64,000 bases of DNA from Candidatus Nomurabacteria bacterium (GCA_029288775.1 JARIGQ010000001.1:29044-93043), one strand, 5' to 3'. Shown: positions 12,763 to 45,920, counted from the first letter of the stretch. Numbers and translations: made by a program. Notes: generated by a model from the sequence alone, not told the origin.

Positions 12763-15700
12763 ATGTCTAATTTCTCAATGAAGATTGTTGCAGCTGCAAC
12801 AATCGTCGGAGGTGCGATCGCCGGTGCAGTTTCTGCATCAGCTGCTCTCAACCTTCCAACACAGAACTGTTCTTACATGTTCAATACGAACATGAAGCTC
12901 GGTTCTCGTGGTACAGATGTTATGAATCTTCAAAAGATGCTTAACATGTGGCCTCAGACACAGGTTGCCGCTTCAGGTGCAGGTTCTCCAGGAATGGAAA
13001 CTTCTACCTTCGGTCCAGCAACTCGTGCTGCGGTAAATAAGTTCCAAGCTCTTCACCTTGTTGAGCTCGGAATTACTGCTCCTACAGGAAACGTATTCGC
13101 AGGAACACGTGCATTGCTCAACGCAGCATGTAACGGTACTGTAAGTACTAACCCAGGAACTCCAGGTACACCTGGAAACACTACTGGTCCAGTTTCAGCT
13201 ATGCTCTCGGCTTCACAGCCGTCAGGTATGATTGTTCAGGGTCAGTCAGGTGCTCGTCTTGCTGACATGACTTTCACTGGAAACGGTACAGTTACATCTG
13301 TACAGCTTCAGCGTACTGGTGTGTCAACAGACTCATCACTTACTAACGTATACCTTTACGACGGAAACACTCGCATCACTGATGCAGCTTCTGTAGTAAC
13401 AGGCGGATACATCAACTTCAACAATCCTAACGGTCTCTTTACAGTATCAGGATCACGTACAATCACTGTACGTGCTGACATTGCAAGCAACACGAATGGG
13501 CAGTCAGTTGGTGTAAAGCTTAACAGTGTTACAGCTGGTGGTGCAGTCTCTACATTTTCTAATGTAATGGGCAACACTCTCCAAATTGCTAACGTAACAA
13601 CTGCATCAGTAAACATTGCAGCGATGGATACATCATCTCGTACTGTTGATGCAGGTACAGTTAACTACACACTTTGGTCAGGTTCTGCAACTGTATCTAC
13701 ACGCGATGTAAATATGCGTGCAGCTACATTTAAGTTCGTAGGTTCAGCTCCAGCTGACTTCGCAACTAACCTTAACCTCTTCGTTGATGGTGTTAAGATT
13801 GCAGGTCCTTCAATGGTTAACGCGGCTAACAATAACAAGGTTACTTTTGACCTTGGTTCAATGCCATATCTTCTAAAGACTGGCTCACACACAATTGAAC
13901 TCCGTGGTGACATTGTTAAGGGTTCAAACCGTACAGCTACTTTCTCAGTTGAGAATCCAGCTGACCTTATGTTCGAAGATACTAACCTTATGGGTGTAAA
14001 CGTATCTCCAACTGTAGCAAGCGCAACTCTTACTCAGTCAAACTCAGCTTACGGTACTATTACTGTAAACAAGGGTTCAGTAACTGTTAACGTTGATCCA
14101 TCATTCAACGGTACTAAGGTAACAGGTGGTGCTACTAACGTTCCAGTTGGTCAGTTCACACTTAAGGCGTATGGCGAAGACGTGAAGGTAAATAGCCTTC
14201 AGGTTAACTTCAACAACACGACTGCTACATCAATGAACAACGTATCGCTCTATGTAAATGGAGGTCAGATTGGTACGTCACAGAACTACCGCAACGCGGC
14301 TCTTACGTACAACCTTGGTTCATCACTTATCATCCCTGCTGGCCAGACTGTAACTCTTACAGTTAAGGCTGACGTGGTTGATGCAAACAACTCAGCTTGG
14401 TCATCGGGTACGGTACAGGCTCAGATTGGTGGTGTAGCAAATAACGCTCAGGGTCAGTCATCTAATGAACTTACTTCAGTTGCGTCTTCACCAGTATCTG
14501 GCAATAGTCTCACCGTTTCATCTGGTGCAGGAACATTTGCTCGTACTGCAGGTTTCTCAACTGTAACAGTTTCACCTAATACTTCAGGTGTTAAGATTGG
14601 ATCATTCACGATTCAGGCTAACTCATCAGAAGCTATTAATGTGACTTCTATTGGTGTTAATCCAACTGTAGCAACATACGGTATCACGAATATTTCAAAC
14701 CTTCGTGTTATGTCAAATGGTGCAACTGTAGGAACTCCAATTGGAAACCCTTCAACAGGAACTTCAACGTTCTCGTTCCCTCAGATCACTATCCCTGCTA
14801 ACGGTACACAGACATTTGATGTGTTCGCTGACATTGGTCCAGCAACATCAGGTTCTGTAACTACAGGCATGGATATTACATACCGTGGTGCGATCTCTAA
14901 TACAACGACAACTTCAACAGCTGCCGGTGTAGCGATCACATCTGCAAACTCATCACTTACAGCTTCAACGCTTGCGGCTTCATCACCGGTTGCGCAGTTC
15001 GTAGTGGGAGGTTCAACATTCGGTATTGCAACTTACACGCTTAAGACTTCTGCAGCAGGTACGTTAGCTAACGTTCGCGAACTTCGCTTCAACGTTAACA
15101 ATGGTTCGGGTTCAACCCTTACTAACGCTATCCAGTCTGTAACAGTTGGCGGTGTAACAGCTCCAGTAGTTAACGGTACGTCTACTGTTACTGGCCTCAA
15201 TATCCCAGTTAACTCAACTGGTACAGATGTTCCAGTAACTGTTACGTTCTCTAACTACCAGAACGCTTCTGTTAATCCTGGTTCACTTTCTACAACTGTA
15301 GGTAACGTAGCACTTATCCTTACATACGTAGAAGCAACATCAGGAACAGGAAACGTGATCTTCAACACTGTTACTGCAACTTCAAGTACAATGATCGGTG
15401 TAGCTTCTAAGCCTACGGTAACTACCGGTGCAGGCAACGTAGATACACTCGTACTTGGTTCTGAAAACAAGGTTGGTGAATTCACAGTAACCGCAGATGC
15501 TAACGGTAAGATTGCTGTAGGTACAACTTCAGTTGACCTCTCAGCTATCGGTGTTACGAACCCTCAGTTCTCTGCAGGACGTATCGCTGATGGAAACACT
15601 ACGATTGCTAACACAAGCGTAACTGGTTCCTCAACAATGACCGTTACCTTCACAACTCCTTACCAGATCAGTGCAGGTCAGTCAAAGACCTTCTCACTTT

Positions 15701-21297: not shown

Positions 21298-22397
21298 GGA
21301 AGGGGAGTGAAATAGAACTGAAACCGTATGTTTACAAAGAGTAGAAGAGGTATTTATACCTCGACTGCGTGCCTATTGAAGAATGAGCCAACGAGTTGTA
21401 GGTTACTGCAGGCTAAGTGGTATAAAGTCACGGAGCCATAGCGAAAGCAAGTGTTAATAGCGCGAACCAATTGTAGTAGCTTACAGACCCGAAGCCGGAT
21501 GAGCTTACCATGAGCAGGGTGAAGCAGTGCGAAAGCACTGTGGAGGCCCGAACCAGTAGGTTGTACGACTCCTTTGGATGACTTGTGGTAAGGAGTGAAA
21601 AGCTAATCGAATTCGGTAATAGCTGGTTCTCTCCGAAATAGTTTTTGGACTAGCGTCATGTGTTCCCTTTGGGGGTAGAGCACTGGAAGGTTTTGACTAG
21701 TAGAAATACGGCAACACCTATCAAACTCCGAATACCAAAGGTTAAAAACATGGCAGTAAGACCACGGGGGCGAAGCTCCGTCGGTCAAAAGGGAAACAGC
21801 CCAGATCTCAAGTTAAGGTCCCTAAGTATAGATTAAGTGTATAGCGAGGAGGTGGAGTTTCATTGACAATGAGGATGTTGGCTTAGAAGCAGCCATCATT
21901 GAAAGAAAGCGTAACAGCTCACCCATCGAGAGACTCTGCGCCGTAAATGATCGGGACTAAAATCTATCACCGAAACTGAGGGCTTCCTATTTATAGGGAG
22001 CGGTAGGAGAGTGTTCCACTCTGCGCTGAAGCGGAAGGGGTAACCCACCGTGGAGCGTGTGGAAGTACGAATGTTGGCACAAGTAACCGCAAGGAAGGTG
22101 AGATCCCTTCCCGCCGAAAGAATAAGGTTTCCTTTGCAATGATTGTCAGCGAAGGGTTAGTCGGGCCTAAGGAGATGGCAAACGCCGGATCCGATGGACA
22201 TAAGGTTAATATTCCTTAACTTGGTAGTAATGTGATGGGATGACGGGGTGTAGTATGTAAAGCGTCTTATTGGATTGACGTTTATTGTGTAAGTGGCTTG
22301 TGTAGGGAAATCCGCACGAGTATACCGCAAGCACCGTATGAAGGTGAGGGGCAACCCGAGCCAATTTTACAAAGCACGCCTCCGAGAAAAGTCTCTA

Positions 22398-36938: not shown

Positions 36939-38204
36939 ATGATAGAGCAAATTCTTTCAGCGCTCATGTATCCATTCCTTTTTCTTTCGATTTTTTTCGA
37001 AGTGCTTTTATTGGTTTCTTTTTTTGAAAACAAAAAGAAGATCGATGAGGAAGAGGAGGAATACCCGCTTACTCATTTTCCTACAGTAACCGTTGCGGTA
37101 CCGTGTTGGAATGAAGAAAGAACGCTTGCTGCCACACTCGATTCTTTGCTTGCATTGGAGTATCCAAAAGACAAGCTTTCCATTCTTGTAGTAGATGATG
37201 GCAGTCGTGATGCTACCCTTGCCATTGCTCAGAAATATGAAGCTCAGTATCCGGGCATTGTGTATGCACTTCATAAAGAAAATGGAGGAAAACATACTGC
37301 GGTAAATATGGCGCTTGATCGTTCCACTTCTGATCTTTTTGGTTGCTTGGATGCTGATTCATTTGTAGCTTCGCATACCCTTAAGAATATAGTTACGTAC
37401 TTTGAACGAGATCCGACGATTATGGCTGTAACTCCTTGTATACATATTAAGCATCCGACAACTTTTATCCAGCGCATGCAGGCCATTGAATACCTTGTCG
37501 GAGTATTCACTCGCAAAATGTTCGGCTCGCTTGATGCGATACAAGTAACACCTGGTCCATTTTCTATTTTTCGCAAAGAAGTGTTTCAGAAAATTGGTAA
37601 GTATCATAAGGCACATAATACGGAAGACTTTGAAATTACCTTGCGCATGCATAAGGCTCATTTGAGAATCGCTAACTCTCATAAGGCGCTTGTATATACG
37701 GTTGGTCCTGCAACAGCGAAAGGCTTTTTCTACCAGCGACTTAGGTGGGCTCGAGGATTCCTTGAAAATGCAATCGATTACCGTGAACTTTTTTTCAAAA
37801 AGGAATATGGTAACTTCGGCATGTTTACGCTCCCTATGGCATTTATGTTCGTCTTTTATGGTTTGTATGCTTCTATTTTTGCCATCTATTCGGGAATGAG
37901 GGCGTGGGGAAACACTTTTGATCGGTGGGCAACTGTTGGAATTCATCCCCGCATGCCACAATTTGATCTTTTTTATGTAAATACAAATTTTATGTCATTT
38001 ATTGTGATGTTTATGTTTACCATGCTCCTGCTGGTAATTTATATCTCCAATACCCTTACCGATGATCGGCAGCAGTTTTATCGTAACTTTCCCATATTTT
38101 TTATTCTTTATCCTTTTTTTGTTCCCATCTTTTTGGGTAAGGCTGTATTTGATACGCTGTTCAAACAGAAAAACCTGTGGGTGCTTCAGGACACCAAGAA
38201 ATAG
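36939..38204 (+). CDS. Processive GT2 glycosyltransferase (PgaC/IcaA/cellulose synthase-like)
   Basis: PCWNEE, DDGS, DADS, TED, QRLRW, C-terminal TMs. Confidence 0.92.
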   Translation: MIEQILSALMYPFLFLSIFFEVLLLVSFFENKKKIDEEEEEYPLTHFPTVTVAVPCWNEERTLAATLDSLLALEYPKDKLSILVVDDGSRDATLAIAQKYEAQYPGIVYALHKENGGKHTAVNMALDRSTSDLFGCLDADSFVASHTLKNIVTYFERDPTIMAVTPCIHIKHPTTFIQRMQAIEYLVGVFTRKMFGSLDAIQVTPGPFSIFRKEVFQKIGKYHKAHNTEDFEITLRMHKAHLRIANSHKALVYTVGPATAKGFFYQRLRWARGFLENAIDYRELFFKKEYGNFGMFTLPMAFMFVFYGLYASIFAIYSGMRAWGNTFDRWATVGIHPRMPQFDLFYVNTNFMSFIVMFMFTMLLLVIYISNTLTDDRQQFYRNFPIFFILYPFFVPIFLGKAVFDTLFKQKNLWVLQDTKK

Positions 38205-38235
38205 TAAGCGGAACCTCCTGTGATAGAATGATGGT

Positions 38236-39045
38236 ATGAACGGGCATTTTCACCCCATAACTAAGGCTATCGACAAGGTTGCGCGTATTTTTACCGAGAT
38301 TGGATTTGATGTTGTTGACGGCCCAGAAATTGAAAGCGAGTGGTACTGTTTTGATGCGCTTAATTTTCCTCGCAATCACCCAGCGCGAGACATGCAAGAT
38401 ACTTTTCATATCAAAGCAGAAACATTTGATCGCCCAAAAACAGAAAGCGAACAAAAATCTATGGAACGATTTGGAACTTTTAACTACGTGTTGCGAACAC
38501 ATACTTCTGGTGTCCAAGTTCGTACCATCGAAAAATGGATTAAAGAAAGGAGAGAATTTCCAATTGCAGTGGTGGTGCCTGGCCAAGTGTTTCGTAACGA
38601 AGCAACGGATGCTCGCCATGAAGCGCAGTTTTATCAAGTAGAAGGATTGATGGTTGGAAGGGATATAACACTTGCCCACCTCAAGGGCGTACTTGAACAT
38701 TATTTCTCCAAGTTTTTGGAAAAGGATATCAGAGTACGTTTCCGATCTTCTTTCTTTCCTTTTACAGAACCATCAGTGGAAGTCGATATGGAATGTTTCA
38801 AATGTGAAGGTAAGGGAGTTGTGGAGGGTGTACAGTGTTCGGTTTGTTCAGGTTCGGGGTGGATTGAGATTATGGGTGCGGGAATGGTACATCCTAATGT
38901 CCTTCAAAATGCAGGCCTTAATCCGCGTGAGTATCAAGGCTTTGCGTTTGGGGGAGGGCTTGATCGTCTTGTGATGCTCCAAACTGGTATTGATGATATA
39001 CGCCTGCTTTATAATGGAGACCTTCGGTTGGTACATCAATTCTAA
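38236..39045 (+). CDS. pheS: Phenylalanyl-tRNA synthetase alpha (lacks the N-terminal coiled coil)
   Basis: HPARDMQDTF, LRTHTS, FPFTEPS, CxxC/CxxC, GFAFG.GLDR. Confidence 0.97.
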   Translation: MNGHFHPITKAIDKVARIFTEIGFDVVDGPEIESEWYCFDALNFPRNHPARDMQDTFHIKAETFDRPKTESEQKSMERFGTFNYVLRTHTSGVQVRTIEKWIKERREFPIAVVVPGQVFRNEATDARHEAQFYQVEGLMVGRDITLAHLKGVLEHYFSKFLEKDIRVRFRSSFFPFTEPSVEVDMECFKCEGKGVVEGVQCSVCSGSGWIEIMGAGMVHPNVLQNAGLNPREYQGFAFGGGLDRLVMLQTGIDDIRLLYNGDLRLVHQF

Positions 39046-39048
39046 GAT

Positions 39049-39840
39049 ATGAACAAAAGTTATTTAGTTATCCTGAGTCTTTCTATCCTCGCTCTTATAG
39101 CGGTTGGGGTATATGTGTATGAGGGTCGCATGATACAAACTTCTCCTGCTGTCTCGGAAGCGACAGCATCAAGTACAGCTCAAGGAGTCCGTGTACAAGA
39201 GGATACGCCTGCATATACCATCGATATTACCTACCCTGCATTTCCTCAGGAGCTACATGGTGCATCAAAAGCAAATGAAGCCATAAAGAATAATCTCGAT
39301 CTTCGACTTGAACAGTTTAAGAAGGAAGCCAAGGAAAGTTTCGAAGCCCCGACTGATTTACCCGCTAGTGTGAAAAGTACAATGGGTGGCAGTCCTACAA
39401 CCGAATATGAAACCGATAGGTATATTTCTTTGTATTTCGGGGGCAATTGGTATATGCGAGGAGCTGCTCATGGTATGAATACGATTGATACCTACGTCTT
39501 CGATAAAAAGCTGGAGAAAGTTGTTGATATTACTGACATGTTTACACCTGGAAGTGGTTATTTGCAATTTCTTTCCACCTACGCTCGCCAGGATTTAGAA
39601 GCACAATCCAAAAAGGGGGATTTAGGACTTACCTATAACGAAAACATGCTTAAAGAAGGAACTGAAGGAACATTTGATAATTTTCGTCTTGCGCTTCCCA
39701 CTAAGGATGGGCTCGTGATTTATTTTACGGAATATCAAGTCGCTCCGTATGCTGCCGGTCCGCAACAGGTTGTAATACCATATGAAAAGTTAAAGCCGTA
39801 TATTAATCCTGAGGGAGCGCTTGCTGACTATCTTAAATAA
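39049..39840 (+). CDS. RsiV-like (DUF4163/DUF3298) membrane-anchored protein
   Basis: GAAHG, LVIYFTEYQVAPYAAG..VVIPY. Confidence 0.85.
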   Translation: MNKSYLVILSLSILALIAVGVYVYEGRMIQTSPAVSEATASSTAQGVRVQEDTPAYTIDITYPAFPQELHGASKANEAIKNNLDLRLEQFKKEAKESFEAPTDLPASVKSTMGGSPTTEYETDRYISLYFGGNWYMRGAAHGMNTIDTYVFDKKLEKVVDITDMFTPGSGYLQFLSTYARQDLEAQSKKGDLGLTYNENMLKEGTEGTFDNFRLALPTKDGLVIYFTEYQVAPYAAGPQQVVIPYEKLKPYINPEGALADYLK

Positions 39841-39842
39841 GT

Positions 39843-42185
39843 ATGAAATTTTCATTGAATTGGCTTCAAGAGTACAGTAAAGAACCACTTCCAAATGTGG
39901 ATAGTCTTTCGGAAATGATAACGCTTAATGCCTTCGAGATTGAAGGTATGGAAAAGCTTGCTCAGGATATGGTGCTTGATATTAAAGTATTGCCTAATCG
40001 TGCTCATGACGCTCTCGGACATCGAGGTATGGCGCGTGATATATGTGCTTTGGTAGGGAATACTTTTCACGATACTCAGGAATATTATGAAGGGGAAGGG
40101 GATACTTCTTTAGGTGAACCAAAGGTCATTGCAGCTTCTGAAGAATGTACTCGTTTTATGAGTGTACGTATTGAAGGAATAAAAGTAGAAGAATCACCGG
40201 TATGGCTTAAGGAGAAATTAAACGCCATTGGTCAGAAGAGTATTAATTCAATTGTTGATATCACCAATTTTGTTCAGTTTGCTATTAACAAGCCAATGCA
40301 TGCCTATGACGCAAGTTTGATTGCAGGTAATGCGCTCTATGCAAGGAAAGCAAAAGATGGTGAGAAGCTTATCACGCTTGATGATAAAGAACTTAGTTTG
40401 GATAGCGGTACTTTGGTAATTGCTGATGAAGAAAAGGCATTAGGGCTTGCCGGTATAAAAGGAGGCAAGTTTTCGGGGATTACCTCCGAGACGACGTCTG
40501 TGCTTTTGGAATCAGCGAATTTCAACTCCACCCTTATTAGAAAGACTTCGCAAAAGTATGGTATTCGCACGGATGCTTCCAAGCGTTTTGAAAATGAACT
40601 GGCAGATGAGTTGGTAGAAGACGGGCTCCGTCTAACAATTGCCCTTATCAAGAAACTTAACCCTGAAGCTCGCGTGAGTGCTATTGTAGACCATTGGACG
40701 CATCAAAGTTGGCCCTACGTTGTCTCTGTGTCTGTAGAGGAAATCAACAAGCATCTCGGCACTTCCTACGAAGAAAGTGACATTAAAAAAGTTTTTGAAC
40801 ATTTAGGATTTGGCGTGCGAAGTGCGACAACTCGCGAAATTATTGAAGAACAAGTAAAGAAAACAGAAGGAGCTCTCTACCAAAATCCTTCCAGCATGAG
40901 AACTGATGCGCCACATCTTTTTTCCTGTTCTTCGCTTATAAGTTTTCTTTTTGCTGGAGTATGGCAACCAAGTCTCTCTATTGATAAATATGTGTATGCT
41001 TCTCCTCTTAATAAGATTGATGCAAAGTGGGGGGATTTGGTATTTTCCAACACAGGGGAGGGAAAGATCCGCTATGAATCAGTGCAGTTTTTGCCTGGCA
41101 CTACCGTGGAGCAAGGTGTTGACCATGTGGGATTATATTTAGGGGACAACAAAGTGCTTCACATTTCCCATAACACAAATAAGGTTGTCACCCAAACCTT
41201 TGATGAAGCCGCAGACTTCACTGATAAACTTTTGTTTGCGCGACTTGTAGATGTTGAAGCTCCAAGATTATTTGTGAACGTTCCTCCAGAACGTCTGGAT
41301 ATTCGCATCAAGGAAGATCTTATTGAGGAAGTAGCTCGTATGAAAGGATTGTCTTCTATTCCTTCAGTGCTTCCGAATATTGCTCGCACGGGTATTCCTC
41401 ATAAGCGTTTATATTATGAGACCAAAATAAAAAATATTCTTTCTAAGGGGGGCTTTTCGGAAATCATGACGTACTCCTTTGGGGATGAAGGTGAGGTAGA
41501 AATCATGAAAGGCTCTGCTATGGACAAAGAAAAACTTCGCACCAAGCTTGCGCCTGGCCTCTGGAAGGCATTTCAGATGAATATGCTTAATGCGCCGCTT
41601 CTTCAGATTGATACGGTGAAGATGTACGAATTCGGAAACATCTTCACTCCTACTAATGAGCGTCGTCATTTTGCACTTATCATCGATGACGGTAAAAAGA
41701 AATCATCTTTTTCTGAAGAGGTTGATCTTGTGCTTTCTGAAATTAAACGCGAGCTTGGCGTGTCCCAGCTTGAATGCCAAACAGCAAGCACCAAGCCATA
41801 CTGTGTCGAGCTTGATTTTGATACACTGATCGAATCACTTCCTGAGCCTACGACGTATGAACCGCTTGCACAAGATCTATCACCTATTGCTTACAAACCA
41901 GTCTCTCCTTATCCGTTTATTGTTCGTGATATTGCTGTATGGGTACCTGCTTCTATCACATGGGAAACTATCCGTACTCTCGCTTTACAAATCAGTTCTC
42001 CTCTTATTGCTCGCTTGTATTGTTTTGATACCTTCGAAAAAGAGATAGAGGGGGTTCGGAAAACATCCTTTGCTTTCCGTTTTGTACTCCAATCGCATGA
42101 GCGCACGCTTACGGATGCTGAGGCCAATGAAGTGGCGGATAAGATGTACGCACTCCTTAAGGAAAAAGGGTATGAGATTCGCTAA
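39843..42185 (+). CDS. pheT: Phenylalanyl-tRNA synthetase beta with inserted NlpC/P60 domain
   Basis: LPNRAHD, B3/4 (INSIVDITN, LESANF, TDASKRFE), B5 RLDI..EDLIEEVAR split by the insert, FDX-ACB C-terminus; no B2 OB fold. Confidence 0.93.
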   Translation: MKFSLNWLQEYSKEPLPNVDSLSEMITLNAFEIEGMEKLAQDMVLDIKVLPNRAHDALGHRGMARDICALVGNTFHDTQEYYEGEGDTSLGEPKVIAASEECTRFMSVRIEGIKVEESPVWLKEKLNAIGQKSINSIVDITNFVQFAINKPMHAYDASLIAGNALYARKAKDGEKLITLDDKELSLDSGTLVIADEEKALGLAGIKGGKFSGITSETTSVLLESANFNSTLIRKTSQKYGIRTDASKRFENELADELVEDGLRLTIALIKKLNPEARVSAIVDHWTHQSWPYVVSVSVEEINKHLGTSYEESDIKKVFEHLGFGVRSATTREIIEEQVKKTEGALYQNPSSMRTDAPHLFSCSSLISFLFAGVWQPSLSIDKYVYASPLNKIDAKWGDLVFSNTGEGKIRYESVQFLPGTTVEQGVDHVGLYLGDNKVLHISHNTNKVVTQTFDEAADFTDKLLFARLVDVEAPRLFVNVPPERLDIRIKEDLIEEVARMKGLSSIPSVLPNIARTGIPHKRLYYETKIKNILSKGGFSEIMTYSFGDEGEVEIMKGSAMDKEKLRTKLAPGLWKAFQMNMLNAPLLQIDTVKMYEFGNIFTPTNERRHFALIIDDGKKKSSFSEEVDLVLSEIKRELGVSQLECQTASTKPYCVELDFDTLIESLPEPTTYEPLAQDLSPIAYKPVSPYPFIVRDIAVWVPASITWETIRTLALQISSPLIARLYCFDTFEKEIEGVRKTSFAFRFVLQSHERTLTDAEANEVADKMYALLKEKGYEIR

Positions 42186-42186
42186 G

Positions 42187-42678
42187 ATGAAACTCGTCGT
42201 TCCCTATTATTCACAATTCGTAGATATTCAGGATCCTTTTTGGATGTTACGTGCTTGCGGAGCGGTATGTCTTAAGATGGTTGCGGAATTTCAGGGAAAA
42301 GAAGTTCCCGATTTAATAATTCTATGCAATGAGGCAAAAGAGCGCGGAGGATACGATATGGTAAATGGATGGGTACATGATTATTTGGTATCTAAAGCTG
42401 AAGAGTTGGGATTGAAAGCATATCGCAAGGAAGGTCTCGATACTCTTGATGAAGTTAAAGCCTTTTTAGAAAAAGGACCGGTAATTGTTTCTGTGGAGAA
42501 ACGTGTGCTTGAGCAAAAGCGCTTTCACATGATTGTGATAACGGGTATTGAAGACGATATGGTTATCTACCACGAACCGGAATCAACTGATAAAGGGAGA
42601 GGGATGAACCGCGTGTGCACTGTGCAAGCATTTATGGACTATTGGCGCGGCAAAGCTATTTTTATCGACTCACCTTAG
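42187..42678 (+). CDS. C39-like cysteine peptidase
   Basis: VPYYSQ, ACGAVCLKMV, PVIVSV, HMIVITG, YHEP. Confidence 0.85.
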   Translation: MKLVVPYYSQFVDIQDPFWMLRACGAVCLKMVAEFQGKEVPDLIILCNEAKERGGYDMVNGWVHDYLVSKAEELGLKAYRKEGLDTLDEVKAFLEKGPVIVSVEKRVLEQKRFHMIVITGIEDDMVIYHEPESTDKGRGMNRVCTVQAFMDYWRGKAIFIDSP

Positions 42679-43424
42679 AATTGTTCTAGATGCGCTTTCC
42701 AGAGATCATGACGATCATCTATGTGTCTCTCATTGTCACTGCGGCATAGAGATTTCAGTAAAGGTGTATCTTTTATCCATTCCTTGCCATTCCAAAATTC
42801 CAGTGGTTCGACATTTGTTTTATAGAGGGCTTTTTCCGCATAGCAGGTACCGAAATAAAAATAGTGTTTGCCATTTTTTGAAAGTTCTCGTATATGATCC
42901 AGTGCAAGCCACATACCCATGGAAGATTTCGCGTATTCGTGAGCGTAAAAGGAAAACCAGTAATGACTCATGACTTCATCCTCTACCAGTAAAAGGTAAG
43001 CGACAGGTATTCCATCCTTAGCGTATTCGACAATTGAATTGATAAGGTTCATCGAGAGAATAAGTTCGAGACGTTCGCGTGGCATGACGCTTCCGTGAGC
43101 AAGGTTGAAGTATGAAAGGCAGAGGTTGAAGAATGTCTCATCGTGTAGAATATCTTCTACAGTACGAAGCTTTTTTTCAAACATGCCATCAAACATGCGT
43201 AAGACCCGACGGTTTTCACTTGTAGGCTCCCATTTCCTAATATCTGCTCGGGTTCCTCGCGCCATATAAAAAATATCTCGTATTCCTTTGGATCCAGAGT
43301 AGGGAAGAAAACCTCGCTCATAGATTTCATGAAGTTTGTCTCCGTGTTCGCGCTTAAGGTACAACGTATAGGCGAAGGAATACGTTTCGTATGAGTGGCC
43401 AAATTCAGAAGCAAATAACTGCAT
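42675..43424 (-). CDS. ATE/Bpt-like aminoacyl-tRNA-dependent transferase (GNAT-like fold)
   Basis: RGF..; FSFY...SMGMW..LDHI......YFYFG.CY....LYK....PLE matches the ATE_C pattern. Confidence 0.65.
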   Translation of the reverse strand: MQLFASEFGHSYETYSFAYTLYLKREHGDKLHEIYERGFLPYSGSKGIRDIFYMARGTRADIRKWEPTSENRRVLRMFDGMFEKKLRTVEDILHDETFFNLCLSYFNLAHGSVMPRERLELILSMNLINSIVEYAKDGIPVAYLLLVEDEVMSHYWFSFYAHEYAKSSMGMWLALDHIRELSKNGKHYFYFGTCYAEKALYKTNVEPLEFWNGKEWIKDTPLLKSLCRSDNERHIDDRHDLWKAHLEQF

Positions 43425-43427
43425 AGA

Positions 43428-44831
43428 TTAAGCGGGAAATTTTTCTTCCAGTGCTGAAATGGTTTCTGGAATGAATCCTCCCATACCTCCTGAACTTAAA
43501 ATAAGAATAACGTCATTATCTTGTGTGTAATTAACAAGATCTATTAATCCAGTAGCAGCATGTTCAAACGGGGTTACTTCGATACCAGAGGCACGCACGC
43601 GCTCTACAATTTCTTCAAGATTTAACTGCTCATGAGTTCCGCTTCCGTGCTCAGGGGGTTTATACATAAACACATGCTCTGCTCCCTTAAATACGGTATC
43701 GTACCAATGAAGTGCTGCACGGTTGCGCCAAGAAAATGTATGAGGTTCAAACACAACAACAAGCCGTCTACTTGGAAAATGAAGTTCCATTGCTTCGATT
43801 GCAGAACGTGCCTTATCAACGGATGATCCAAATCCTTCATAGACGGGAATGGAAGTTTTTTCACTCTTCTTATCCAGTCGACGCACAATTCCTTTGAAGG
43901 TCTGTATACCTTTTGCAAGCTCTTCCGGAGTGAGTTTTTGTGTTTCTAATAGAAGAGCCGCAACTCCAATAATATTTTGTATATTGTGCTTACCTAGAAG
44001 AGTGGTAGAAAGGCGGACAATAACTTCATCATTTTTTACTAAATCAAAGGTTGATTCTCGGCCAAAAGTAATGTTTGCTGCGTGATAGGTTCCTTGTTCC
44101 AGTCCGTACGAAATACTATCGTGAGTTATTTCTCCTAGTTTAGAGTGTACAGTCATATCATCCGTACAGAGGATAAGTTTTCCCTCTTGGGGGAGACCTT
44201 GAATAAGCTTCATGAAAGGGAAAAGATAGTCCTCGTGGGTTGGAAAGACATTTACATGATCATGAGCAAGCGCAGTGACAAGGAGATGTCTTGGATGGAG
44301 GAACATAAACTTAGAAGTAGTGTCCCAATTAGAAGAAGGATATTCGTCGCCTTCCATGATGAAATCATTTCCATTGCCTAGACGCGCATTGGTGGTAGGT
44401 GTAAGGGGAATTGCACCAATGAAATAACTTGGATCTTTCCCGGCTTGCTCGAGACACCAGGAAAGAAGTGATGTGCAGGTAGATTTGCCAAATGATCCAA
44501 CTACCACAGTATTTTCTTTGTGTTCCGAAAGGTGTTCAAGTACTTGTGGAAAAGAAAGGACTGGTTTTCCTGATTCTAAAGCAGCTTTTACTTCTTCATT
44601 TTCTTCAGGAATAAGTTTTGCATGTTTGCCGATGACGATATAGTCCACATCATCTGGAATATTATTTGGAGAAAACGGAGTAGTGCACGGGATTTTATGT
44701 TCCACTAAATAATCAGAAATAGGAGGGTAGAAGCCTTCATCGCTTCCTGTTACGGTTTCTCCTTTGTCGACAAGTAACTTGGCAACCGCGCTCATGCCGG
44801 CGCCGGAGACGCCGATAAAGTGATATTTCAT
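43428..44831 (-). CDS. mpl: Mpl/MurC-family ligase (most like murein peptide ligase Mpl)
   Basis: HFIGVSGAGMS, GSD..YPP, GSFGKST, EGDEY, FEPHTFS, SSGGMGG. Start chosen from the TATGAT box 7 nt upstream. Confidence 0.75.
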   Translation of the reverse strand: MKYHFIGVSGAGMSAVAKLLVDKGETVTGSDEGFYPPISDYLVEHKIPCTTPFSPNNIPDDVDYIVIGKHAKLIPEENEEVKAALESGKPVLSFPQVLEHLSEHKENTVVVGSFGKSTCTSLLSWCLEQAGKDPSYFIGAIPLTPTTNARLGNGNDFIMEGDEYPSSNWDTTSKFMFLHPRHLLVTALAHDHVNVFPTHEDYLFPFMKLIQGLPQEGKLILCTDDMTVHSKLGEITHDSISYGLEQGTYHAANITFGRESTFDLVKNDEVIVRLSTTLLGKHNIQNIIGVAALLLETQKLTPEELAKGIQTFKGIVRRLDKKSEKTSIPVYEGFGSSVDKARSAIEAMELHFPSRRLVVVFEPHTFSWRNRAALHWYDTVFKGAEHVFMYKPPEHGSGTHEQLNLEEIVERVRASGIEVTPFEHAATGLIDLVNYTQDNDVILILSSGGMGGFIPETISALEEKFPA

Positions 44832-44904
44832 ACTTTTCATCATAGCAAAAATGGACAAGAAAAAAAGCAGCGCTTGCGCGCTGCCCAAAGCACCTTTCCC
44901 GCCC

Positions 44905-45774
44905 TTAATCGTTTACGACTACCGCCACGAGATTTCTCCGCTGTACTTCTCCGGCAACCAGTTGCCGCTTATTGGAGTACCAGACAGGTTCACCGTCCTT
45001 CATCTCGCTGTAGGTGCACATCGAGTCAAGGATAATGTTTTGTTCGGGTACACCGAAGCTTGTGAATTGTCGCCGGATGAGCTCTTTAGTGTCGAGCCAC
45101 CCAAGTGTGCGACCGTGACCGTCATCCTTGAAGCATTCCCGTCCCCAGGTTTCGGAGACATAGGTGACGAGACGGGAGTTATGAGGGTTCTCTTTGTCGA
45201 ACATCGAATGCTGGAAGTGCGGTCCAGGTGAGATGGAAAACCCAACCCACACACGCACATCTTTGAGATTCTGACCTTCGAATGCACACCGGCAGATGCT
45301 GTCGACGACGCTTTGGTAGCGTCGAGGAGCTTTTCCCCGTACCCGAGCCATGTCGATGATGCTGTTGCGTCCAGCGTGGGCAGCGACGATGATGTCTCCG
45401 CACTTGGCCACGACGAGTGCGCAGTCTGCTGCCGACATGGCATAGCCGCACGAAGCATCGAGATTAGTCACGCCGTCTGCGTCTGTACCGCGGTAGATGC
45501 GGAATTCTGCGCCCGGGCTGAAACTCATACACGGGATTTCTCCCGGCCATACAATCTCGGCATTCATCTTCGATGGGGATGGTGCAGCGAAAGCTTCCAA
45601 CTCTTCGCTAGCAATGGAAGCCAAAGCTTCGAAGATCGGAGTATGCGTTTTGTGTTGCTCCTTGCTTTCGTCGAAGCCACGAAAGGAGAAATCGCAACCA
45701 TGCTCACGCCCAAAAGCATGCACCGTGATTTCGCCTCCTAAAATCGGGAGCGAAAGTGTAGGTTCGATGGACAT
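44905..45774 (-). CDS. PgeF/YfiH (laccase-domain) family protein
   Basis: DADG, AADC, AAHAGR, CTY..YS motifs; own promoter and SD; GC-rich. Confidence 0.8.
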   Translation of the reverse strand: MSIEPTLSLPILGGEITVHAFGREHGCDFSFRGFDESKEQHKTHTPIFEALASIASEELEAFAAPSPSKMNAEIVWPGEIPCMSFSPGAEFRIYRGTDADGVTNLDASCGYAMSAADCALVVAKCGDIIVAAHAGRNSIIDMARVRGKAPRRYQSVVDSICRCAFEGQNLKDVRVWVGFSISPGPHFQHSMFDKENPHNSRLVTYVSETWGRECFKDDGHGRTLGWLDTKELIRRQFTSFGVPEQNIILDSMCTYSEMKDGEPVWYSNKRQLVAGEVQRRNLVAVVVND

Positions 45775-45920
45775 TACTGTCTTCCTAAAAGTTGAGTGTA
45801 CCTCTTTCGGATTGAAAGGGCTTCTACTACCAACACTACAATAGTAAAATAAGCTTGTCAATTAAGGCTTTTTGGAGCGCTTTTGCACTGGTATTTAGGG
45901 GGTAAAAATGGTATAATTAA

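Follow-up and report, generated by a model that had tools for sequence, protein, structure and literature searches.

What is a cysteine peptidase domain of the NlpC/P60 family doing in the middle of the β subunit of a phenylalanyl-tRNA synthetase (PheRS)? The question is raised by a 64,000-nucleotide stretch of DNA (hereafter the window) from a Candidatus Nomurabacteria bacterium, an ultra-small member of the Patescibacteria whose genome amounts to 692 kb and is 98.9% complete; the homologues of the domain come from sources named Paceibacterota, Parcubacteria or Patescibacteria. A first-pass annotation had reported the insertion in the B5 domain of PheT and had offered three readings of it: muropeptide processing linked to translation, an extra editing hydrolase, or a tolerated passenger. 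Our analysis reveals a real, selected and exchangeable domain, predicted to be an enzyme, which resides in a presumably working PheT and is able to exist without pheT. The fold, the triad and the novelty of the fusion stood up to scrutiny, whereas a partner gene of the C39 type and the cassette-like exchange of the domain had been missed.

The host protein has the features of an ordinary PheRS β subunit. The pheT gene (39843..42185, + strand) encodes a short form of 780 aa composed of B1, B3/B4, B5 interrupted by NlpC/P60, B6-7 and B8, the B2 OB-fold domain being absent. With a score of 405.1 against the whole-protein model TIGR00472 (cut-off 402.65), it belongs to the bacterial PheTs, and Pfam recognizes B3/4, B5 in two stretches, NLPC_P60, a catalytic-like module and the anticodon domain, which include all three domains named in the first-pass annotation. 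It shares B1, B3/B4, B5, B6-7 and B8 with the bacterial β subunits of S. haemolyticus (2rhs) and T. thermophilus (1b70), its B5 superposes on theirs at 1.2-1.4 Å and its editing residues are conserved, but it lacks B2 and carries a 144-residue peptidase-domain insert in B5. The α subunit is encoded by pheS (38236..39045, + strand; TIGR00468, 293 bits over the cut-off), the sole PheRS α found by profile searches of the source genome, where monomeric PheRS is absent. Since this genome contains no other PheRS, the PheT of the window is presumably the functional one. As to the surroundings of the two genes, the family-model match of PheS begins at model position 68, the N-terminal coiled coil region being missing, and the protein carries a CxxC...CxxC zinc-finger-like insert. 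A PdaC/DUF3298 (RsiV-like) gene whose product has an N-terminal hydrophobic stretch lies between pheS and pheT (39049-39840) and separates them also in some other family members, insert-bearing or insert-less. A promoter and terminator scan of positions 38000-43000 returned 0 and 0 sites, such a scan being uninformative for this lineage.

The insert itself (MEROPS C40-like; residues 329-470, 40827..41252, + strand) was delimited by Pfam, a structural model and alignments. It is preceded by the N-terminal half of B5 (residues 290-328, 40710..40826, + strand), whose two helices and first hairpin strand superpose on the S. haemolyticus B5, and followed by the C-terminal half (41253..41360, + strand) with R484, D486, D492, E495 and E496, which are conserved in 310-321 of the 324 fusions and mostly lost in 34 standalone copies described below. 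The acidic residues of B5 bind Mg2+ at the subunit interface. The annotated length of about 145 residues agrees with the 144 residues (net) that the window PheT has in excess, at the B5 hairpin tip, of the closest insert-less PheT of the same genus (locus L054, 637 aa); on the two sides of the insert, these proteins are 65% and 71% identical. The GC content is flat over the insert, which is the sole NlpC/P60 match found in the source genome. The profile NLPC_P60 (PF00877, cut-off 23) matches the insert alone with 33.7 bits and the full PheT with 27.7 bits. The codons of Cys362 (40926), His428 (41124) and His440 (41160) lie exactly where they had been annotated, that of Tyr346 is at 40878, and Ser361 (40923) stands, as had been noted, in place of the Asp of the DC motif. 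A subfamily-specific hairpin of about 20 residues between the GDLVF strand and the catalytic His (41049..41117, + strand) appears as a gap against the solved NlpC/P60 structures in the alignments, and its strands are present in the model.

An AlphaFold model of residues 290-506, built on a 51-row alignment, has a mean pLDDT of 94.9. Its residues 40-181 superpose on 4hpe, a P60-type endopeptidase, with Z 16.2 and an rmsd of 2.0 Å over 121 residues; 8wt3 (Z 16.1) and 7cfl (Z 16.0) follow, Foldseek agrees (7cfl, E 2.7e-8), and NlpC/P60-type folds are the only ones matched by the insert. Both B5 flanks taken together superpose on the B5 of 2rhs with Z 14.2 and an rmsd of 1.2 Å over 73 residues, and in the model the B5 and peptidase folds are both intact. 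The profile match, the P60 fold, and the Cys-His-polar triad of the sequence with the putative oxyanion Tyr346 place the insert in the NlpC/P60 family, so that the annotated split of B5 by such a domain is confirmed. The top sequence and fold matches are all peptidoglycan DL-endopeptidases. With P60-type enzymes of this kind (C. difficile Acd24020, 7cfl, 4hpe; B. subtilis CwlO, 8wt3; E. coli MepS/Spr, 2k1g) the insert has in common the fold (Z 15-16, rmsd about 2 Å), the Tyr-Cys-His-His active site and the GDLVF and HVG motifs. Unlike them, it is cytoplasmic, nested in an aminoacyl-tRNA synthetase and devoid of signal peptide and wall-binding domain, and it possesses the extra hairpin of about 20 residues, while the subtype found in the window has lost the Asp, Arg and Trp of the pocket.

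Matches to the insert were found in 154 proteins at E<=1e-3 among PheT-length candidates, nearly all of the 120 listed having the same domain order, and therefore the fusion is neither a chance match nor an artefact of assembly or frameshift. A profile search against 50% representatives gave 375 matches at E<=1e-30, PheT fusions making up most of the 150 listed. From 324 distinct fused domains, 7 fragments without the Cys region were left out; in the remaining 317, which are kin and hence not independent, the Cys is present in every one, and Cys-His-[H/D/N/E/Q] in 308, the others comprising 1 truncated domain and 8 with another third residue or a lost His. The catalytic residues, far from being lost in most homologues, are thus nearly invariant, and the annotated triad holds for the family. 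Among the 25 closest pairs (dS about 0.8-1.1), the pairwise dN/dS values obtained by the Nei-Gojobori method for the insert and the rest of PheT were 0.10 and 0.08 (L025/L026), 0.12 and 0.14 (L089/L095), and 0.16 and 0.12 in a further pair, the exception being pairs that involve L098 or L101, where the dN of the insert is 1.7 to 3.2 times that of the host. The mean identity is 0.51 for the insert and 0.46-0.63 for the other PheT domains. As judged from these alignments, the insert is evidently under purifying selection similar to that on the rest of PheT.

Which bond would such a domain cleave? The most instructive relative is YkfC, or dipeptidyl-peptidase VI (3h41), a cytoplasmic NlpC/P60 enzyme of muropeptide recycling. 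In YkfC, γ-D-Glu is bound by Asp237, Ser239 and Tyr226, Arg255 forms a network with Asp237, the S1/S2 sites are lined by Trp228, and Asp256 is the residue that marks the subfamily (PMC2954226). When the motifs are aligned to 7cfl, Tyr346, Ser363 and Ser379 of the window correspond to YkfC Tyr226, Ser239 and Ser257, and Ser361, Ser377 and Asn348 stand instead of Asp237, Arg255 and Trp228. At the five positions of the γ-D-Glu pocket (Tyr226, Trp228, Asp237, Ser239, Arg255) it thus reads Y, N, S, S, S, and the complete pocket is encountered only in the FDCS subtype of its relatives. The insert also falls outside the YkfC subfamily: position 378, the counterpart of Asp256, is occupied by Leu, Ile, Met, Val or Thr (a hydrophobic residue in the window), the SH3b domain is absent, and there is no tracking epimerase gene. 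Among 152 domains with Ser361, Ser377 is found in 149, Asn348 in 132, Lys382 in 145 and Arg353 in 145, whereas in the FDCS subtype the Asp is paired with the Arg in 123 domains. The co-occurrence of these changes and the grouping of the subtype in a 44-row clade of the insert tree (100/99) indicate one inherited remodelling rather than decay. The suggestion of muropeptide processing therefore fits the ancestral FDCS subtype, which likely cuts γ-D-Glu-X bonds, and is weakened for the FSCSS subtype of the window, whose specificity has likely shifted: with Asp, Arg and Trp changed together, classical muropeptide specificity becomes doubtful there, and a cell-wall substrate is an extrapolation.

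Gene content did not single out a pathway. In 53 genomes of the genus, murD is missing in 9 of 31 insert-bearing and 3 of 22 insert-less genomes, and glutamate racemase is found in 14/31 and 11/22, so that the insert as a bypass of MurD or of the racemase was rejected. A YkfB-type partner was likewise discarded, the epimerase being found in one of three genomes with and one of two without the insert, and so was a substitute for D-aminoacyl-tRNA deacylase (DTD) or peptidyl-tRNA hydrolase (Pth): in the five genomes tested, insert-bearing and insert-less alike, DTD was found in none and Pth was equally present.

One neighbour does accompany the insert. A gene for a C39-like cysteine peptidase of 163 aa (42187..42678, + strand) starts one base past the pheT stop; its product belongs to Peptidase_C39_2 by profile (PF13529, 35.2 bits, cut-off 24), by fold and by the residues Gln10, Cys24 (42256) and His114 (42526), invariant in 51 homologues. 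The model (pLDDT 97.4) is best matched by C39 leader peptidases (Z 18.4), then by B. anthracis 3erv (Z 17.4) and the pseudomurein endoisopeptidase PeiR (Z 16.1). It shares the fold and the Gln-Cys-His residues with the C39/C39_2 peptidases (PCAT leader peptidases, 6mpz; 3erv; PeiR, 8z4h) and differs from them in being single-domain, without a transporter, and tied to pheT::NlpC. At the 85 family loci whose flanks are long enough, insert and C39 occur together in 31 cases, the insert alone in 22, C39 alone in none and neither of them in 32. Genome-wide in the genus, C39 is present in 28/31 insert-bearing and 0/22 insert-less genomes, with a cut (E<1e-45) that was set once the locus gene had been seen to stand apart from a weaker band of paralogues. 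A tree-based table of C39 and insert, from which genus g325 is left out since its hits lie in the ambiguous band, reads 37, 4, 3 and 31, independent pairs going the same way in 6.8 cases and the opposite way in 0.1 (median p 0.016). Across the class, 15 of the 18 genomes with a C39 orthologue have the peptidase, while only 12 of 25 fusions have a C39 orthologue (E<1e-45); G406, G407 and G418 retain C39 without any NlpC. Two separate single-chain fusions join the domains, B5::NlpC-C39 in L210 (403 aa) and plain NlpC-C39 in L266 (330 aa). No other conserved neighbour specific to the insert was found. In these genomes the C39-like gene is genetically coupled to the insert, and its product is likely the partner of the latter.

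The peptidase also outlives its host gene. In a family of standalone proteins of about 200 aa (41-50% identity to the window region), only B5-half, NlpC/P60 and B5-half are left; Cys-His-His is kept in 32/34, the N-terminus is not hydrophobic and the acidic residues of B5 are mostly lost. In a scan of GTDB that is biased to the subtype of the window and supplied the named loci (80 of 92 kept), 20 of the 80 loci are B5-flanked standalones, of which 17 adjoin a monomeric mitochondrial-type PheRS, 9 co-directionally and 8 head-to-head; the gene neighbourhood there is that of pheST in the window, and thus the old pheST locus. In family f164, all 12 matches are plain NlpC/P60 genes that are devoid of B5 and immediately precede the gene of a monomeric PheRS. 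Five genomes with standalone copies (95-100% complete) contain a B3/4 domain in no case and one strong PheRS α match. In a tree of 138 columns, a single clade of 137 rows (SH-aLRT 99), poorly resolved inside, unites all the fusions, B5 standalones and plain small copies and sets them apart from the secreted NlpC/P60s, and an atlas search with one standalone returned NlpC/P60 clusters only. Where a monomeric PheRS has replaced pheS/pheT, the predicted peptidase persists as a gene of its own; many other freed copies sit at unrelated loci, so that the adjacency to PheRS can be historical.

Several observations on these replacements deserve mention. Many Paceibacteria (L167, L168, L170-L177, L250-L263) have a monomeric mitochondrial-type PheRS instead of pheS/pheT, with 220-249 bits for TIGR00469 and 216-261 for NF051887, both below cut-off, and its tree suggests several transfers. 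Two same-order genomes with monomeric PheRS (L018 and L019; G143 and G284) have no NlpC match, and hence the peptidase is sometimes lost after displacement of pheST. A second, more diverged standalone family with B5-like halves around NlpC/P60 (L003, L005, L009, L165, L166, L265) is scattered over classes, away from PheRS, and two members of the wider clade (L265, L277) adjoin a gene of the γ-glutamyl-ligase family.

That PheT normally lacks such a domain, as had been annotated, is borne out by insert-less relatives and by solved PheRS structures, none of which has an NlpC/P60 insert. The proposed survey of relatives found the patchy distribution, together with dN/dS values similar to those of the host: in the family of the window, the insert is present in 56 of 96 genomes, absent in 38 (in 3 of which pheT is split across contigs) and undetermined in 2. 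Even samples of 401 genomes each gave 13 fusions for the phylum, of which 11 are B2-containing long forms, and 25 for the class. On a PheT tree of 89 rows (insert columns removed, quick LG+G4), presence and absence change 13 times, a count that cannot separate gain from loss, and the nearest rows to the window include insert-less ones; the B5 hairpin of every insert-less allele is short and canonical. In the clade of the window, the inserts are monophyletic (100/99) and branch as the host tree does with L037 as the one exception, a pattern in favour of inheritance and repeated loss. Elsewhere the insert tree rejects the host sisters L100+L101 (p-AU 7e-59), L037+L049 (0.0013) and L038+L045 (7e-5), pairs that were picked from the host tree after the tree with the 137-row clade and the dN/dS results had been seen. 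In L037 and L049, the two halves of PheT stay sisters, and so do the C39 genes; the C39 gene was not swapped alongside the insert, which speaks against a type-specific interface. The trees indicate that inserts are exchanged between hosts as a unit, and the simplest mechanism would be recombination within the conserved B5 halves, by which gain, loss and exchange may all proceed. A block transfer of 3' pheT and C39 was rejected as the cause of their co-occurrence: the trees of the N- and C-halves of PheT are broadly congruent, alleles with and without the insert being mixed in both (7 and 8 changes), and insert and C39 gene lie 300 retained residues apart.

The model we propose, to which we would give about even chances, is that of a cytoplasmic two-peptidase module (NlpC/P60 and C39) for peptide salvage, carried as cargo on PheT. 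PheT would remain an ordinary β subunit, the tip of its B5 hairpin bearing an independently folded and putatively active cytoplasmic cysteine peptidase, whose production would be ensured, in a genome of 0.7 Mb, by its fusion to an essential and constantly made protein. Insert and C39 peptidase, which both lack a signal peptide, would degrade scavenged peptides in two steps, these peptides being most probably fragments of the host cell wall or other γ-glutamyl or isopeptide fragments. The insert would act by a papain-type Cys-His-His mechanism with a thioester intermediate, and C39 on the product of NlpC or after it, because NlpC commonly occurs in the absence of C39, but C39 seldom in the absence of NlpC. 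Against this salvage reading, the insert tracks neither murD, nor glutamate racemase, nor the YkfB-type epimerase; the best fold matches of the C39 model are leader-peptide proteases and not wall enzymes; the insert is dispensed with by the 38 family genomes without it; and the coupling to C39 is loose in the class, with orthologues in fewer than half of the fusions and three genomes that keep C39 insert-less.

Could the substrate be a tRNA instead? As a form of quality control, the Cys might attack the ester bond of tRNAs that are mischarged, N-blocked or loaded with a D-amino acid or a peptide, which we consider rather unlikely, or it might transfer the Phe of Phe-tRNA to an acceptor and leave the completion of the product to C39, a variant that seems equally doubtful. 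The wider proposition that NlpC/P60-C39 is an undescribed thiol hydrolase or transferase of Patescibacteria acting on acylated tRNA-Phe or its products, as an exchangeable B5 cassette whose FSCSS pocket accommodates a non-cell-wall substrate, is no more probable. Such readings draw on the three arrangements in which the domain directly adjoins PheRS after the loss of pheT, on the absence of the B3/B4 editing module from monomeric PheRS (available text of PMC3275996), on the B5 halves with their nucleic-acid-binding-like fold in the standalones, on the pocket remodelled in the subtype of the window, on the failure to find DTD, and on a few freed copies near SerRS, IleRS/ValRS-type, ProRS/IF-2, SmpB and RluA genes. 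However, displacement of pheST in place by monomeric PheRS would account for the adjacency without a functional tie, neighbours are unrelated in the majority of the 29 inspected loci to which copies have moved, and insert-less genomes are equally without DTD and equally with Pth. Moreover, the B3/B4 editing-site residues are identical across 54 insert-bearing and 35 insert-less PheTs; this, with the departure of many freed copies from the PheRS locus, lends no support to the extra editing hydrolase of the first-pass annotation.

The pair might also strip amino-acid or γ-glutamyl tags from intracellular proteins or cofactors, which appears improbable: the two freed copies beside an F420-0:γ-glutamyl-ligase-family gene, the ATE-like aminoacyl transferase that comes after C39 in the window, and the C39 relatives DUF3335 fused to GNAT-type ligases (available text of PMC10318531) are offset by the presence of the ATE-like gene at the insert-less loci L054, L067 and L070, by its rarity at fusion loci (3/84 in the class sample and GTDB scan), and by a ligase neighbour at 2/29 loci. 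More improbable still is a selfish or conflict cassette, that is, a conditionally useful protease hidden in an essential gene and spread by recombination. The 13 state changes, the inserts swapped between sister PheTs and the clean hairpin of every insert-less allele have this appearance, but no nuclease, repeats or mobile-element genes were seen, the insert tree has long vertical stretches, and the peptidase is retained as an ordinary single gene once pheT is lost. As for a neutral passenger in a tolerant surface loop, one sense of the tolerated passenger of the first-pass annotation, it agrees with the family genomes that manage without the insert and is otherwise largely refuted by the invariant catalytic residues, a dN/dS on a par with the host, survival as a separate gene and the coupling to C39, so that we regard it as very improbable.

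Whichever substrate applies, full-text searches of the main texts of open papers yielded no published description of a PheT::NlpC fusion, and the words NlpC and peptidase occur 0 times in the AARS Online paper (PMC11580382). It would be unusual for a minimal genome to house an accessory function in an intact foreign domain in the core of an essential synthetase, a domain that relatives swap like a cassette and that survives the loss of its host gene. Small and soluble, with natural standalones of 200 aa, two pocket subtypes and a defined partner, it offers a testable handle on peptide scavenging by host-dependent Patescibacteria and, if the domain is linked to tRNA, on a novel form of quality control in translation.

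Finally, the genes downstream of the C39 gene have peculiarities of their own. On the - strand, positions 42675-44888 encode an ATE/GNAT-like aminoacyl transferase and a MurC/Mpl-like ligase where most relatives have murC-murD, an arrangement also present at L026, L037, L049, L054, L067 and L070. All 7 genus genomes with the ATE-like gene at the locus are without a murD match at E<=1e-40, and in the source genome MurE and MurF are present while MurD and the racemase are without match. This suggests a stem-peptide salvage in place of MurC/MurD, independent of the insert. The adjacent stretch (44905-45861, - strand) encodes a divergent PgeF-like protein and was probably acquired recently, its GC content being 0.52-0.59 against about 0.42. 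In two other genomes, MurD lies in unusually long frames, possibly fusions (G211, C9 ~21300-22200, 888 aa; G462, C9 ~13600-14900, 1178 aa).
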